A stretch of 30,598 nucleotides of DNA, taken from IMG/VR virus record IMGVR_UViG_638341084_000008. One strand, given 5' to 3'. The DNA comes from a virus (lineage: Duplodnaviria > Heunggongvirae > Uroviricota > Caudoviricetes). The notes beneath the pieces were generated by a model. The model was given only the letters and a program-made list of their open reading frames with translations. It did no database searches and had not been told where the DNA came from. The position numbers were made by a program, and so were the translations under genes. How positions within the stretch are numbered: position 1 is the first letter of the stretch; each line of letters begins with the position of its first letter. This document shows, piece by piece, positions 5,905 to 30,559 of the stretch.

Positions 5905-8006
5905 TGCTGAATCAGGAAACCGCAACGGCAGCACGAACCGATTCAGGTTATATCCTTCGCGCACCGAGACGAATGCGGGTTGCTGATGCCGTTGCTCAGT
6001 ATATGCGGGTGCCCATGGGGGCAGGGAACTCAGTCCCGTGGGATCCGCTGGTGGCACCGTATGTTATTGAGCCGATGAACTGCCTGGCCTCGCGTGAATA
6101 CGACGCAGTGATATTTGTTGGCCCGGCACGAACCGGCAAGACTATCGGCCTGATTGACGGCTGGGTGATTTACAACGTGATTTGCGACCCTGCGGATATG
6201 CTGATCATTCAGATGACGGAGGAAAAAGCCCGCGAACACTCCAAAAAACGACTCGCCAGAACGTTTCGCGTCAGCCCGGAAGTGGTCAGTCGCCTGAGTC
6301 CGAACAAAAATGACAACAACGTTTATGACAGAACATTCCTTGCTGGCAACTACCTGAAAATCGGCTGGCCGTCAGTCAATATCATGTCCTCATCAGATTA
6401 TAAATGCGTCGCGCTGACGGATTATGACCGTTTTCCGGAAGATATTGATGGCGAGGGGGATGCTTTCTCTCTTGCCTCAAAACGTACCACAACATTTATG
6501 TCCAGTGGTATGACGCTGGTGGAGAGTTCCCCCGGCAGGGATGTGAAGGATGTGAAATGGCGACGGACTTCACCGCATGAGGCTCCACCAACCACTGGGA
6601 TACTGTCGCTCTATAACCGTGGCGATCGCCGTCGCTGGTACTGGCCCTGTCCACACTGTGGTGAGTATTTTCAGCCCTGCGGCGATGTGGTTGCTGGTTT
6701 CCGTGATATTGCCGATCCCGTGCTGGCAAGTGAGGCGGCTTATATTCAGTGTCCTTCCTGTTCAGGACGGATTATGCCTGAACAAAAACGTGAGCTGAAC
6801 GGACGTGGGGTCTGGCTGCGGGATGGTGAATCCATCAATGCGGATGGCAGTCGTTATGGTGATCCCCGACGCTCACGTATTGCGTCATTCTGGATGGAGG
6901 GTCCGGCAGCTGCTTACCAGACACTCTCGCAACTCGTTTACAAACTGCTTACTGCAGAACAGGAATACGAGACAACCGGAAGTGAAGAAACACTCAAGAC
7001 GGTTATCAATACCGACTGGGGATTACCTTATCTTCCCCGCGCCAGCATGGAGCAACGAAAAAGTGAACTGCTTGAGCAGCGGGCAGAGCCAGTTCCTTCC
7101 CGCAGTGTGCCGGATGGCGTTAATTTCCTTGTGGCGACAGTGGATGTGCAGGCGGGACGTCATCGCCGTTTTGTGGTTCAGGTAACGGGCTATGGCAGCC
7201 GTGGCGAACGCTGGATTATTGATCGTTACAACATCACGCAGTCATTGCGCGGTGACAGCGACGGGGAGAGCCAGCGAATTGATCCGGCCAGTTATCCGGA
7301 AGACTGGGATGTCCTGCTGACGGATGTTTTTCATAAAAGCTGGCCGCTGGCCTCCGATCCTTCTCAACAAATGCGACTGATGGCAATGGCGGTGGACTCC
7401 GGCGGTGAAGACGGGGTCACTGATAATGCCTATAAATTCTGGCGTCGTTGCCGTCGTGATGGCCTTGGTAAACGTATTTACCTGTTTAAGGGCGACAGCA
7501 TCCGGCGCGCAAAACTGATCACCCGTACATTCCCTGATAACACCGGACGAACGGGCCGACGGGCGCAGGCCGCAGGTGATGTACCGCTCTGGCTTCTTCA
7601 GACGGATGCCCTGAAAGACCGGGTGAATAACGCGTTATGGCGTGACTCGCCAGGTCCCGGCTATGTGCATTTCCCTGACTGGCTGGGGAGCTGGTTTTAC
7701 GACGAACTGACGTATGAAGAGCGGAGCAGTGACGGGAAATGGAGTAAGCCGGGTCGCGGTGCCAACGAAGCTTTTGACCTGATGGTGTATGCCGAGGCTC
7801 TGGTCATTCTGCATGGATACGAAAAGATCCGCTGGCCGGATGCACCGGAGTGGGCGAGCCGGGAAACCTGGCTGGAGTGTGTCCCGGACAGTACCGAACC
7901 GTCACCCTCACCGGAACCGGTATCCACGCCTGTTAAAAAACAAAAACGGAAGAAAACAGTAACTGACGATGTTAACCCCTGGCTGACTTCCGGAGGATGG
8001 TTATGA
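5904..8006 (+). CDS. Terminase large subunit (gpA-like)
   Basis: 700-aa protein with a Walker A-like motif (VGPARTGKT) in the N-terminal ATPase region, placed as in lambda between the small terminase and W/portal. Confidence 0.9.
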   Translation: MLNQETATAARTDSGYILRAPRRMRVADAVAQYMRVPMGAGNSVPWDPLVAPYVIEPMNCLASREYDAVIFVGPARTGKTIGLIDGWVIYNVICDPADMLIIQMTEEKAREHSKKRLARTFRVSPEVVSRLSPNKNDNNVYDRTFLAGNYLKIGWPSVNIMSSSDYKCVALTDYDRFPEDIDGEGDAFSLASKRTTTFMSSGMTLVESSPGRDVKDVKWRRTSPHEAPPTTGILSLYNRGDRRRWYWPCPHCGEYFQPCGDVVAGFRDIADPVLASEAAYIQCPSCSGRIMPEQKRELNGRGVWLRDGESINADGSRYGDPRRSRIASFWMEGPAAAYQTLSQLVYKLLTAEQEYETTGSEETLKTVINTDWGLPYLPRASMEQRKSELLEQRAEPVPSRSVPDGVNFLVATVDVQAGRHRRFVVQVTGYGSRGERWIIDRYNITQSLRGDSDGESQRIDPASYPEDWDVLLTDVFHKSWPLASDPSQQMRLMAMAVDSGGEDGVTDNAYKFWRRCRRDGLGKRIYLFKGDSIRRAKLITRTFPDNTGRTGRRAQAAGDVPLWLLQTDALKDRVNNALWRDSPGPGYVHFPDWLGSWFYDELTYEERSSDGKWSKPGRGANEAFDLMVYAEALVILHGYEKIRWPDAPEWASRETWLECVPDSTEPSPSPEPVSTPVKKQKRKKTVTDDVNPWLTSGGWL

Positions 8007-24519: not shown

Positions 24520-24531
24520 TGTGGGGTGAAT

Positions 24532-27465
24532 ATGGCAGTAAAGATTTCAGGTGTACTGAAAGACGGTGCAGGTAAACCGGTACAGAACTGCACAATCCAG
24601 CTGAAAGCAAAACGTAACAGCACCACGGTGGTGGTGAACACGCTGGCCTCAGAAAATCCGGATGAAGCCGGGCGTTACAGTATGGACGTTGAGTACGGTC
24701 AGTACAGCGTTATTCTGTTGGTGGAAGGATTCCCGCCGTCACATGCCGGGACCATCACCGTGTATGAAGATTCCCGACCCGGTACGCTGAATGATTTTCT
24801 CGGTGCCATGACGGAGGATGATGCCCGTCCGGAGGCACTGCGCCGTTTTGAGCTGATGGTGGAAGAGGTGGCGCGTAACGCGTCCGCGGTGGCACAGAAC
24901 ACGGCAGCCGCGAAGAAGTCAGCCAGCGATGCCGGCACATCAGCCCGTGAGGCGGCAACCCATGCGACTGATGCTGCAGGCTCAGCACGTGCAGCCAGCA
25001 CATCAGCCGGGCAGGCCGCGACGTCGGCTCAGTCAGCGTCTTCCAGCGCAGGAACGGCATCAACAAAGGCTACTGAAGCATCAAAAAGTGCTGCCGCTGC
25101 AGAGTCCTCAAAAAGTGCTGCCGCTGCAGAGTCCTCAAAAAGCGCGGCAGCTACCAGTGCCAGTGCCGCGAAAACGTCAGAAACGAATGCGGCAGCGTCA
25201 CAAAAATCTGCAGCCACTTCTGCATCCGCCGCGACCACAAAGGCGTCAGAAGCTGCCACCTCGGCACGGGATGCGGCGGCCTCAAAAGAGGCAGCGAAAT
25301 CATCAGAAACGAACGCATCATCAAGCGCCAGTAGTGCCGCTTCCTCGGCAACGGCGGCAGGAAATTCCGCGAAGGCGGCAAAGACGTCCGAGACGAACGC
25401 CAGGTCTTCTGAAACGGCAGCGGGACAGAGTGCCTCAGCTGCGGCAGGCTCAAAAACAGCGGCTGCGTCGTCTGCCAGTGCCGCGTCAACAAGTGCCGGG
25501 CAGGCCTCAGCCAGTGCCACCGCCGCCGGAAAATCGGCAGAAAGTGCCGCATCGTCTGCTTCAACAGCCACAACGAAGGCTGGCGAAGCCACTGAACAGG
25601 CCAGCGCAGCAGCGAGGTCTGCTTCCGCTGCGAAGACATCCGAAACGAACGCGAAAGCGTCGGAAACCCGTGCAGAATCCTCAAAAACGGCAGCCGCATC
25701 GTCCGCCAGTTCGGCAGCGTCATCGGCATCATCTGCGTCAGCTTCAAAAGATGAGGCGACCAGACAGGCGTCAGCAGCGAAGGGCAGCGCCACGACAGCA
25801 TCCGCGAAGGCGACAGAGGCAGCTGGCAGTGCGACGGCGGCAGCACAGAGCAAAAGTACGGCGGAATCCGCGGCAACGCGCGCCGAGACAGCGGCAAAAC
25901 GGGCAGAGGATATTGCATCCGCCGTGGCGCTTGAGGATGCAAGTACGACGAAAAAGGGGATAGTACAGCTCAGCAGTGCGACCAACAGCACTTCCGAGTC
26001 ACTGGCGGCAACGCCAAAAGCGGTTAAGGCGGTAATGGGTGAAACGAACAAGAAAGCGCCCTTAAATAGTCCTGCACTGACCGGAACGCCAACAACACCA
26101 ACTGCGCGACAGGGAACGAATAATACCCAAATCGCAAGCACGGCTTATGTTATGGCTGCGATCGCTGCCCTCGTGGACTCGTCGCCTGACGCACTGAATA
26201 CGCTGAACGAGCTGGCTGCGGCGTTGGGCAACGACCCGAATTTTGCGACCACCATGACTAACGCGCTTGCGGGTAAGCAACCGAAAGATGCCACCCTGAC
26301 GGCGCTGGCCGGGCTTGCTACTGCGGCAGACAGGTTTCCGTATTTTACGGGGAATGATGTTGCCAGTCTGGCAACCCTGACAAAAGTTGGGCGGGATATT
26401 CTTGCGAAATCGACCGTTGCCGCCGTTATCGAATACCTCGGTTTACAGGAAACGGTAAACAAGACTGGTAACGTCGTTCAGCGTTCCGGCGATAAAATGA
26501 CCGGAGAACTGAAAATTGGCACGGTGAATGCGCTGCGAATTTTCAATGATGCCTTCGGTCTTATTTTCCGTCGTTCAGAAGATTTTCTTCATTTCATTCC
26601 GACGGCTGAAGGACAAGGCGAAAACGGTGATATCGGCCCATTAAGGCCATTCGCTATAAATCTGAGAACAGGTGCTATATCTGTCAGCCACGGGGCCAAA
26701 ATTGATGGTGGGCTGGCGCTTGGTACAGATAACGCACTGGGCGGTAATTCCATTACTCTCGGAGATAACGACACTGGTATTAAACAGGGCGGCGACGGTG
26801 TCCTTTTATTCTATTCAAATGGACAACTGGCATTTGGGCTTCAACCCGCATCTGCTGATTTTTATAAGCGGGTTGCATATATTCATCAGGGAATAATTCC
26901 TGATGGAAGTGGCGCATTTGCAGACCAGTTGAATAATGCCACCGCGCCTTTTGTTCAGACGCAGTTTGCCTGGAATCCCACTCCTGGTGGTCATTACGTG
27001 CCGATAGTTAAGGGCTTGTCCATTCGCAATGGACAGGGCTATCCCGGCGCGGTCAGCTTTGGGTATTTACTGACAGAACAGTATGGATTTCCGGTTCCAT
27101 GTATTCATATGCGTGGCGATGGCGGTAATAATGCTTTATGGCAGTTTAACCCGAACGATAAATCCTTTATTTCACCGGGTGCTCTTATTGCGGGTGGCGT
27201 CCGTTATAACACCGATGGAAATATATTTGGTGGGTGCTGGGGTTCAAACTTAAATGATTACCTGAATAGTTCTTTTATCAGAAATGTGCGTCTGGGAGGC
27301 AGACGTTCTGACACATTATATCGCGGAGGACTTTGCGAACCAGGTAATGGTCATGTGACAACAGGATTGCAAATTATTGGTGAGGTTGATGGAGATGACT
27401 GGATGGTGTCACGACCACTACAAAAATACATTTCTGGTAACTGGTATAACGTTGAACAGGCATAG
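24532..27465 (+). CDS. stf: Side tail fiber protein (Stf-like); C-terminal part lies inside the invertible segment
   Basis: The N-terminus (MAVKISGVLKDGAGKPVQNCTIQLKAKRNSTTVVVNTLASENPDEAGRYSMDVEYGQYSVIL) matches lambda Stf, followed by a long Ala/Ser/Thr-rich repeat region. The track start at 24526 is a GTG, so the ATG at 24532 is preferred. Confidence 0.85.
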   Translation: MAVKISGVLKDGAGKPVQNCTIQLKAKRNSTTVVVNTLASENPDEAGRYSMDVEYGQYSVILLVEGFPPSHAGTITVYEDSRPGTLNDFLGAMTEDDARPEALRRFELMVEEVARNASAVAQNTAAAKKSASDAGTSAREAATHATDAAGSARAASTSAGQAATSAQSASSSAGTASTKATEASKSAAAAESSKSAAAAESSKSAAATSASAAKTSETNAAASQKSAATSASAATTKASEAATSARDAAASKEAAKSSETNASSSASSAASSATAAGNSAKAAKTSETNARSSETAAGQSASAAAGSKTAAASSASAASTSAGQASASATAAGKSAESAASSASTATTKAGEATEQASAAARSASAAKTSETNAKASETRAESSKTAAASSASSAASSASSASASKDEATRQASAAKGSATTASAKATEAAGSATAAAQSKSTAESAATRAETAAKRAEDIASAVALEDASTTKKGIVQLSSATNSTSESLAATPKAVKAVMGETNKKAPLNSPALTGTPTTPTARQGTNNTQIASTAYVMAAIAALVDSSPDALNTLNELAAALGNDPNFATTMTNALAGKQPKDATLTALAGLATAADRFPYFTGNDVASLATLTKVGRDILAKSTVAAVIEYLGLQETVNKTGNVVQRSGDKMTGELKIGTVNALRIFNDAFGLIFRRSEDFLHFIPTAEGQGENGDIGPLRPFAINLRTGAISVSHGAKIDGGLALGTDNALGGNSITLGDNDTGIKQGGDGVLLFYSNGQLAFGLQPASADFYKRVAYIHQGIIPDGSGAFADQLNNATAPFVQTQFAWNPTPGGHYVPIVKGLSIRNGQGYPGAVSFGYLLTEQYGFPVPCIHMRGDGGNNALWQFNPNDKSFISPGALIAGGVRYNTDGNIFGGCWGSNLNDYLNSSFIRNVRLGGRRSDTLYRGGLCEPGNGHVTTGLQIIGEVDGDDWMVSRPLQKYISGNWYNVEQA
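25081..25134 (+). repeat. Perfect 27-bp tandem repeat (2 copies) within the stf low-complexity region
   Basis: TCAAAAAGTGCTGCCGCTGCAGAGTCC occurs at 25081-25107 and 25108-25134, encoding SKSAAAAES twice. A diverged partial third copy follows. Confidence 0.7.
26426..26451. other. Left crossover site of the invertible tail-fiber segment (gix/pix-like)
   Basis: TTATCGAATACCTCGGTTTACAGGAA. Seventeen of its bases (ACCTCGGTTTACAGGAA) match the reverse complement of the Mu gix site as I recall it. It lies in frame in stf at ...VIEYLGLQET... Confidence 0.7.
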
Positions 27466-27480
27466 CCATCAGGAGAATAT

Positions 27481-28008
27481 ATGCAACATCTGAAAAATAT
27501 TACCGCCGGAAACCCCAAAACCATTGAGCAGTATCAGCTTACGAAAAAAGCTGGCGTTATCTGGCTATATACAGAAGACGGTAAAAACTGGTATGACGAA
27601 TTAAAAAACTTTCAGGATGATACTTTAAAAATAGCTTATGACCAGAAGGGGATTATTCGTTGTATTGAGAAAGACGTATCAACACTTAACCCTGACGGGT
27701 TAAGTGTTGTTGAGTTACCGAATATAACAGCCAACCGTCGCGCCGATATCTCGGGAAACTGGAAGTTTCTGGATGGTAAAGTAGTAAAGCGGGAATATAC
27801 AAAACAGGAACTGCAACAGCAGGCAGAGTTACAAAAAGCCGCTTTGCTTTCCGAAGCGGAGTCTGTGATTCAACCGCTGGAACGTGCTGTCAGACTGAAT
27901 ATGGCAACTGATGAGGAACGCACACGACTGGAATCATGGGAACGCTACAGCGTTATGGTCAGCCGTGTGGATACTGCAAAGCCTGAATGGCCACAGAAAC
28001 CAGAATAA
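27481..28008 (+). CDS. tfa: Tail fiber assembly protein (Tfa, Mu U-like)
   Basis: 175-aa ORF directly after stf, with AGGAGA upstream. It is a paralogue of the inverted gene at 28039..28572 ([23 protein letters not shown]... versus [23 protein letters not shown]...). Confidence 0.8.
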
Positions 28009-28019
28009 CAACAAATTAA

Positions 28020-28033
28020 GGCCCGTACGGGCC
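28020..28033. terminator. Bidirectional hairpin terminator between the convergent tfa genes
   Basis: GGCCCG-TA-CGGGCC palindrome, with a T-rich tract downstream on the + strand and an A-rich tract upstream (T-rich on the minus strand). Confidence 0.5.
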
Positions 28034-28038
28034 TTTTC

Positions 28039-28572
28039 TTATTCTGGTGGTTCCGGGAATGTTACAGGAAGAACCGAGGTATCAGTTGTCTCAACCTGTT
28101 GCACGTATCGCATCCAGTTCATCAGTTGCTGTCTGTCTGAATCAGTGATAATCCCCAAAGTAAGCTGTGTTTGCCAGAACTGCGTTTTTTCTCTGGCCTG
28201 CTGTAATAATATTTTTTTCTGGTTTTCCGTCTGTAGGCGCAACTCTTCTTCGGTATATACACGTTTAATGACTGCGCCATCTTTAAACATCCATTTACCT
28301 GAGTCGTCAGCACGCCGGTTGGCGGTAATATCAGGAATCTCAACGACGCTATAACCTTCAGGGTTAAGTGTGGAGGCATCTTTGGTTATGGCAACAATAA
28401 TATTATTTTCATCGTAAACAATCTTTATGGTGTCTGGCTGAAAGTTTTTCACTTCCTCATACCAGTTTTTTCCGTCCTCAGAGTAAAGCCAGATAACTCC
28501 GTGTTTCTTTGTTAACTCATACTGTTCCAGTGTTTTAGCATTACCCGCTTTTATGTTCTTTAAGTGCATCAT
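28039..28572 (-). CDS. Tail fiber assembly protein of the alternative, inverted cassette (Tfa', Mu U'-like)
   Basis: 177-aa minus-strand ORF paralogous to Tfa. It lies immediately downstream, on the minus strand, of the inverted fiber C-terminal cassette. Confidence 0.8.
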
Positions 28573-29040
28573 ATTAAACGCTCGCTACATTATACCAGGT
28601 GCCATTTATATACTTTTGAACGGGTCTGTAATAAACGCCCGCTATATTATCGGCAGAGTTAGACCCTGTATCCTGAACATTAATACCAGACAATACATGA
28701 CCTGAAGGGCACCGGAAATTCCATGTTTGCCAGTTGTTCACTCCATAATATTGCTGTGAACCAAGTCGAACATCTTTCACATAACGGGAATCAAAGTTAC
28801 CGTAATCCGAGGGGTTAACACGCCCTGTAATATTTATGGTTTTATTACTTTGAATGCTTCCGGAGACAAAGCGCATAACATGGACGTTATTAGCATAAAC
28901 ATCCAGATTACCATCGCCATTTTGTTTAAAGCCCGTGTCATTATCACCCAATACAATCGAATTACCGCCAAGAGCACTGGATGTTCCGATACCCAGTGCA
29001 CCATTCAGTTGACCACCAGATAACGGCAGTGCACCAACAT

Positions 29041-29459
29041 CTCCTGCTGAAGGTTTTCTGGTGGTGGTGTAAAATTCGGACCAGTCGGCTTCAAAACCAT
29101 AACCATCACGGGCTGAACGATAAAAAATACCGCCATTTTTATAATTAATCCGAAACTGAGCTGCAGGACAACTTCCTTCTCCCATATAAAAATGAATAAT
29201 TAACGTTGATGCACCACTAATAGTTGCGTTATAGGCTCCGCTACTCCAGTTCCATCCAACTGCTTTATCATTCGCAACGGTGCTTCCTGTTTTCCCTAAG
29301 GCAAACGCACCAACATCTCCTGCTGAAGGTTTTCTGGTGGTGGTGTAAAATTCGGACCAGTCGGCTTCAAAACCATAACCATCACGGGCTGAACGATAAA
29401 AAATACCGCCATTTTTATAATTAATCCGAAACTGAGCTGCAGGACAACTTCCTTCTCCC
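29041..29459. repeat. Tandem duplication with a 276-bp unit (copy 1 29041-29316; copy 2 is 29317-29459 and resumes after IS1 at 30237-30369)
   Basis: The exact repeats are visible directly: 29041-29183 equals 29317-29459, and 29184-29316 equals 30237-30369. The unit is a multiple of 3, so the duplication is in frame (92 aa). Confidence 0.75.
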
Positions 29460-29474
29460 GGTAATGACTCCAAC

Positions 29475-29978
29475 TTATTGATAGTGTTTTATGTTCAGAT
29501 AATGCCCGATGACTTTGTCATGCAGCTCCACCGATTTTGAGAACGACAGCGACTTCCGTCCCAGCCGTGCCAGGTGCTGCCTCAGATTCAGGTTATGCCG
29601 CTCAATTCGCTGCGTATATCGCTTGCTGATTACGTGCAGCTTTCCCTTCAGGCGGGATTCATACAGCGGCCAGCCATCCGTCATCCATATCACCACGTCA
29701 AAGGGTGACAGCAGGCTCATAAGACGCCCCAGCGTCGCCATAGTGCGTTCACCGAATACGTGCGCAACAACCGTCTTCCGGAGCCTGTCATACGCGTAAA
29801 ACAGCCAGCGCTGGCGCGATTTAGCCCCGACGTATCCCCACTGTTCGTCCATTTCCGCGCAGACGATGACGTCACTGCCCGGCTGTATGCGCGAGGTTAC
29901 CGACTGCGGCCTGAGTTTTTTAAATGGCGGAAAATCGTGTTGAGGCCAACGCCCATAATGCGGGCGGTTGCCCGGCAT
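29475..29978 (-). CDS. insB: IS1 transposase InsB
   Basis: The 167-aa translation ([16 protein letters not shown]...[13 protein letters not shown]) matches IS1 InsB as I recall it. Confidence 0.9.
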
Positions 29979-30172
29979 CCAACGCCATTCATGGCCATAT
30001 CAATGATTTTCTGGTGCGTACCGGGTTGAGAAGCGGTGTAAGTGAACTGCAGTTGCCATGTTTTACGGCAGTGAGAGCAGAGATAGCGCTGATGTCCGGC
30101 GGTGCTTTTGCCGTTACGCACCACCCCGTCAGTAGCTGAACAGGAGGGACAGCTGATAGAAACAGAAGCCAC
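29897..30172 (-). CDS. insA: IS1 InsA (transposition regulator; N-terminal part of the InsAB' frameshift product)
   Basis: The 91-aa translation ([42 protein letters not shown]...) matches IS1 InsA. Confidence 0.9.
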
Positions 30173-30559
30173 TGGAGCACCTCAAAAACACCATCATACA
30201 CTAAATCAGTAAGTTGGCAGCATCACCCCTTCTCCCATATAAAAATGAATAATTAACGTTGATGCACCACTAATAGTTGCGTTATAGGCTCCGCTACTCC
30301 AGTTCCATCCAACTGCTTTATCATTCGCAACGGTGCTTCCTGTTTTCCCTAAGGCAAACGCACCAACATGACTTGCTTTTAATGTGATATCGGAGGAACC
30401 ATCAAAACCCACATTGCTTATTTTCCTGGCAGTTTTTAATTTTGCAGCTGTAGAAGCATTGCCGGATAGTTCACCAGAAAGGCCACCGCTGAATGTTTGT
30501 CGATTAGTCCAGGTATTCGCTGTACTGAGTAACGGTATTTTCTCCCCGCTTGTGCCGAG

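Follow-up and report, generated by a model that had tools for sequence, protein, structure and literature searches.

The alternative tail fibre cassette of a prophage in EPEC strain B171 carries both an insertion of IS1 and an exact 276-bp tandem duplication, and IS1 sits inside the second copy of the duplicated unit. We consider it likely that these are two ordinary mutations, probably independent of each other, in the alternative cassette of an invertible stf locus. Both changes are scars of routine mutation, left in an already dead gene segment, and they do not represent a new biological system. What they record is how a prophage lost one of the two host-range alternatives of its side tail fibre by inactivation.

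The stretch of DNA analyzed here (the window) is 30,598 bp long and is the complete contig AAJX02000046.1 (GCA_000167895.4) of EPEC strain B171, which belongs to a Sanger-era draft. AAJX has been described as a high-quality draft of this strain (PMC4464170; PMC2884950). The positions of the features in the window are listed in Table 1.

Table 1. Features of the fibre locus in the window
Feature	Position	Strand	Remark
stf, side tail fibre (979-aa ORF)	24526..27465	+	Pfam phage_tail_N, E=2e-71
Left crossover site TTATCGAATACCTCGGTTTACAGGAA, inside stf	26426..26451	+	22/26 against the reverse complement of the right site
tfa, tail fibre assembly gene of the expressed cassette, 175 aa	27481..28008	+	PF02413 Caudo_TAP
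tfa', alternative tail fibre assembly gene, 177 aa	28039..28572	- (inverted)	PF02413
Alternative C-terminal fibre cassette with duplication and IS1	28574..30559	-	Translations; Pfam gp37_C, gp37_trimer
10-bp direct repeat GCACCAACAT	29031-29040, 29307-29316, 30360-30369		Marks the duplication borders
Copy 1 of the 276-bp unit (92 codons), uninterrupted	29031..29306	-	Contains the empty IS1 target
Copy 2, first 153 bp on the plus strand ("A")	29307..29459	-	Ends in the left target duplication
IS1, 768 bp	29460..30227	-	99.7% identity to the annotated IS1 of phage P1
IS1 terminal inverted repeats	29460-29482 and 30205-30227
insB', 167 aa	29475-29978	-	NCBIfam NF033558 transpos_IS1
insA, 91 aa	29897-30172	-	NCBIfam NF033558 transpos_IS1
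Right target duplication (30228-30236) and remaining 123 bp of copy 2 ("B", 30237-30359)	30228..30359	-
Right crossover site TTCTCGTAAACCGAGGTTTTAGATAA	30560..30585	+	Contig ends 13 bp beyond

The invertible fibre locus and a sister allele

The contig contains the late region of a lambdoid prophage, with the terminase, portal, head, tail, tape measure, J and lom genes. After lom, the gene order is stf, tfa, and then the inverted tfa' and fibre C-terminal cassette. The stf gene consists of a constant N-terminal part joined to the variable C-terminal cassette that is currently expressed. An earlier note on this DNA, made from the letters alone, had placed the two changes in a silent fibre cassette. 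This description is correct for the B171 contig, in which the cassette lies inverted behind stf-tfa between the crossover sites.

The fibre locus is a Gin/Pin-type invertible segment. It is bounded by paired 26-bp sites, and an inverted match between them as close as the one in Table 1 is not expected even once by chance. The two cassettes are opposed, each has its own assembly gene, and both orientations of the segment were found. In collinear relatives, a serine recombinase gene follows directly after the right site, a position that in B171 falls past the contig end. This neighbouring recombinase is a 180-nt pseudogene in EC958 and is intact in the P2-like copy of JJ1887.

Inverted 26-bp sites with a AACCGAGGTTT core occur in the G segment of Mu, the C segment of P1 and the P segment of e14, and likewise here. 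With the segments inverted by Gin, Cin, Pin and Hin the locus also shares opposed fibre C-termini with their own tfa genes and the occurrence of both orientations in nature; in relatives, a recombinase gene stands beside the right site. It differs from them in that it is a lambdoid stf locus with one dead cassette, and in that the examined relatives have a pseudogene for the neighbouring recombinase, whose position falls outside the B171 contig.

The other orientation was found in a sister assembly. Besides the B171 ORF itself, its 90% cluster contains a single protein, of 207 aa, encoded on NJLQ01000025.1 (GCA_002466105.1). This protein has the same IS1-derived start, MESLPGEG, and is without the 92-aa repeat. 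That contig begins 196 bp inside IS1. It is 100% identical to the window over 26435-29183 and 29307-29655, with the identical IS1 junction and, as assembled, no duplication. That is, the insertion site of IS1 in B171 is common to one other draft assembly. The sister contig differs from the window at 3 bases only, all of them inside the left crossover site. In this contig the left site continues into the sequence located past the right site in the window, and the resulting hybrid site, TTCCTGTAAACCGAGG continued by TTTTAGATAA, is as expected after inversion. The hybrid site and the three differences within it thus indicate that the whole segment was inverted in the sister by exact site-specific recombination. 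In the sister orientation the IS1-bearing cassette is joined to the fibre gene.

The recombinase gene on NJLQ01000025.1 runs for 60 codons and then reaches TGA. Since this gene is a pseudogene both there and in EC958, inversion was probably catalyzed in trans by the invertase of another prophage. The end of the B171 contig just past the right site may reflect mixed orientations in the sequenced culture.

The deposited gene calls break stf into a 513-aa product and small ORFs, some of which are on the opposite strand; the single open 979-aa frame has a long repetitive middle rich in Ala and Ser. The deposited annotation therefore probably under-calls stf. Caution is also needed with the product annotated as 'gpH' in B171 (EDX28378.1), which is a fragment of the cassette, truncated by IS1 and containing the duplication. 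In exact look-ups of other proteins of this prophage, the J protein matched in B171 only and the tape-measure protein was found in 723 blocks.

The IS1 insertion and the 276-bp duplication

The inserted element starts with GGTAATGACTCCAACTTATTGAT and ends with ATCAGTAAGTTGGCAGCATCACC, and its length and terminal inverted repeats are those of the IS1 family. The reading frames of insA and insB' are both intact, and the A6C motif, AAAAAAC, at which a -1 frameshift joins these frames in the IS1 family, is present at IS1 position 307. On either side of the element lies a perfect 9-bp target duplication, CCTTCTCCC (29451-29459 and 30228-30236). Compared with the IS1 of E. coli, Shigella and phage P1, the length, ends, frames, A6C site and 9-bp target duplication are the same, and compared with known IS1 insertions nothing but the insertion site differs. 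The element had been read as a simple insertion at these coordinates on the basis of its perfect 9-bp flanks, and our analysis agrees with that reading. The nine letters had also been said to occur three times. The third occurrence, at 29175-29183, is the empty IS1 target in copy 1, and the empty allele of EC958 contains CCTTCTCCC once.

The two copies of the 276-bp unit were compared by a repeat search and by direct string comparison. They lie head to tail and are identical at 276/276 positions, and a perfect repeat of this length cannot arise by chance. With the second copy split by IS1, Tandem Repeats Finder reported nothing on the window. The reading frame is kept through the duplication, as the minus-strand ORF 28574-29473 is continuous across the B-to-A junction, which reads TTTCCCTAAGGCAAACGCACCAACATCTCCTGCTGAAGG. 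An exact in-frame duplication with IS1 in one copy is what the earlier note had described, except that it began the unit at 29041 rather than at 29031. The two descriptions give the same duplication in different registers, and the borders lie inside the 10-bp sequence GCACCAACAT.

In EC958 and in many ST131 genomes, the cassette is uninterrupted and unduplicated, has a length of 972 bp and shows 99.7-99.9% identity. The same stretch measures 2025 bp in the window, and the difference of 1053 bp is the sum of 768, 9 and 276. The expectation that the B171 allele is about 1.04 kb longer than the empty, unduplicated allele is thus borne out. One base difference from EC958 (29054 and its partner 29330) is common to both copies, and the duplication is therefore recent and local. 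We rejected recombination between the diverged cassettes of two prophages, in view of the identity of the copies and the private base that they share against EC958.

We then consider the borders of the unit. The reconstructed 972-bp ancestral allele contains only two 10-bp direct repeats and none longer, and the GCACCAACAT pair, with a spacing of 276 bp, is one of them. In the unduplicated allele this sequence flanks the unit at both ends, and it recurs at the junction. Identical head-to-tail copies with a junction inside a flanking short direct repeat are the marks of a tandem duplication at microhomology, and the B171 cassette would offer a clean natural example of one that is module-exact, at a microhomology of 10 bp.

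The coding strand of GCACCAACAT gives an xVGA motif on both sides of the 92-aa block. Residues 71-166 of the cassette, which form the duplicated block, align to residues 322-417 of Mu S'/gp52 (PDB 8JU3), and the Pfam gp37_C match falls inside the block; NCBIfam had no model for the fibre cassette. The xVGA motifs look like module linkers. Since the block bounded by them is the stretch of homology to 8JU3, one whole fibre module was duplicated between linker motifs. The 92 aa correspond to one block of homology, as in the exchange of mosaic modules among tail fibres (Mu S', PDB 8JU3), whereas here the module is doubled within one gene and not exchanged between phages. The duplicated unit itself is a mosaic block that is about 85% identical to Mu S'/gp52, and the flanks of the two fibres are barely related.

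A unit that is in frame and equals one structural module between linker motifs might suggest that the fibre was lengthened adaptively, with the module duplication being selected. We rejected this explanation as extremely improbable. IS1 knocks out the same cassette, so that the module stands in a dead gene segment; of the best 120 protein homologues, none but the B171 protein contains two copies of the module; and the duplication is absent from 413 cassette-carrying genomes.

Origin of the two changes

Three origins had been offered for the duplication in the earlier note, namely an IS1-associated rearrangement, unequal crossing over, and an assembly artefact joining IS1-containing and IS1-free alleles. 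Of these, unequal exchange (or template switching) is favoured by the 10-bp microhomology. A classical rearrangement by the IS1 transposase is unsupported, because neither border of the duplication is an IS1 end, and we rejected a transposase-made adjacent rearrangement on this ground. A pure assembler artefact is unlikely, since an assembler cannot join contigs on as little as 10 bp.

We infer the mechanism of the duplication and the order of the events as follows. Template switching during replication, or unequal sister-chromatid exchange, at GCACCAACAT would have generated the 276-bp tandem duplication, and simple transposition of IS1 generated the target duplication CCTTCTCCC. The cassette is inactivated, and after a flip to the expressed orientation the fibre is truncated at IS1. 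In E. coli, the junctions of tandem duplications and amplifications lie in direct-repeat microhomologies of 4-15 bp, and template switches inside a replication fork typically bridge distances from a few hundred bp up to a few thousand (PMC1428787, Slack et al. 2006). The B171 duplication resembles the lac amplification junctions of that study (PMC1428787) in its head-to-tail repeat and its single novel junction within a short direct repeat, and in both systems the parental allele has the repeat at both ends of the unit. In contrast to the lac amplicons of 7-32 kb, the unit here is 276 bp, within the size range attributed to switching at a single fork. Also in contrast to lac amplification, there are two copies only, no selection is evident, and IS1 lies inside one copy.

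Concerning the order, we tentatively place the duplication before the insertion of IS1 into the second copy. The sister would then have lost the duplication, or its short-read assembly would have collapsed it. A single recombination between the two 153-bp A segments of the duplicated allele would give exactly the sister allele. The opposite order, in which IS1 came first and the duplication followed later in B171, is somewhat doubtful, and the small probability that remains beside a draft artefact belongs to other origins.

Among the facts that run contrary to our preferred explanation of two separate mutations are that the duplication is known from one assembly, which is a Sanger-era draft contig, and that the sister assembly is without it. 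These facts bring in the explanation that the true B171 allele has the IS1 insertion alone, as in the sister, and that the duplication is a draft artefact caused by a rearranged shotgun clone, by a chimeric read at low coverage or by an error in finishing. The age of the draft agrees with such an artefact, as do the contact of the duplication with a multicopy IS, the second, IS1-free cassette that is usual in carrier genomes (a median of 2 copies per genome), and the IS1 without duplication on the 100%-identical sister contig. Furthermore, the junction was found in no other sequence searched. A 70-mer across it had 0 matches in 5,426 complete E. coli genomes, whereas a control 70-mer inside the unit was found at the equal threshold in 413 of these genomes, at 636 places. 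Neither JGI metagenome contigs nor GTDB representative genomes contained the exact patterns of the junctions. As for the IS1 junctions, a 70-mer across the left one had 0 matches in the same 5,426 genomes, and for the 68-aa ORF spanning the right one no record was found.

Against an artefact, the layout of the contig requires that some read contain the B-to-A junction, and such a read can come neither from an IS1-containing allele nor from an IS1-free one. The 10-bp microhomology is far under the minimum overlap of any assembler, and for arbitrary contig ends the probability of a chance match over such a length is about 1e-5. In addition, the junction is seamless and in frame. Taken together, we regard a draft artefact as unlikely, and the locus may serve as a small test case in the validation of assemblies. 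A real duplication should make the allele unstable, and recombination between its B copies could then mimic a precise excision of IS1.

The occurrence of two rare events less than 300 bp apart hints at a link between them, biological or technical. A biological link would exist if IS1 came first and the duplication was made by one IS1-associated repair event or by a two-step variant of it. In the repair event, the sister chromatid would serve to mend a break at an IS1 end, and the template would be switched twice: a first switch, at the 9-bp target repeat, would give an IS1-free A-B joint, and the second, at GCACCAACAT, would return to A-IS1-B. In the two-step variant, the 1053-bp unit A-IS1-B would be duplicated, and one IS1 would then be excised precisely. 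An IS1-first origin of this kind accounts for the adjacency of the two events and places both novel joints at the two relevant short repeats, and the sister shows an IS1-only allele on an identical background. It requires, however, two microhomology switches in one event or else a precise excision. Precise IS excision is much rarer than the collapse of a 1053-bp tandem repeat. Moreover, no border of the duplication is at an IS1 terminus, unlike the borders of adjacent rearrangements made by transposase. We therefore think that such an origin is rather unlikely.

The one-step form, with the repair of a break at an IS1 end and switches at the 9-bp target repeat and the 10-bp module-linker repeat, is improbable when taken separately. 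If it were true, exact duplications of domains in modular tail-fibre genes could start from IS insertions. The resulting allele could then also segregate by homologous recombination into IS1-only alleles and IS1-free alleles in which IS1 would appear to have been 'precisely excised'.

Related cassettes in other genomes

IS1 was also found in other copies of the cassette. JJ1887, the best match among complete E. coli genomes, carries an independent IS1 in the same cassette of a P2-like prophage (extract 6543-7311). It lies 68 bp away from the B171 site, its target is equivalent to 29107-29115 of the window, and its orientation is as in B171. The prophage of JJ1887 is a different one from that of B171. 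In Ec-23 (extract 6001-6769), an IS1 variant of 93% identity abuts the position equivalent to 28651 of the window, and both tfa genes are deleted. The independent insertions may reflect a mild target preference of IS1 for the AT-rich cassette.

Two proteins related to the cassette were also observed. A Logan assembly protein of 294 aa consists of the N-terminus of a lambda-type large terminase and the C-terminal 221 aa of the cassette, the latter at 100% identity. Such a fusion implies that a large part of the prophage late region is deleted in some other genome. In Salmonella enterica, a 'recombinase family protein' of 445 aa, for which Resolvase and HTH domains are precomputed, aligns with 84% of the cassette query, and this suggests that an ORF of a related invertible locus is fused or mis-called.
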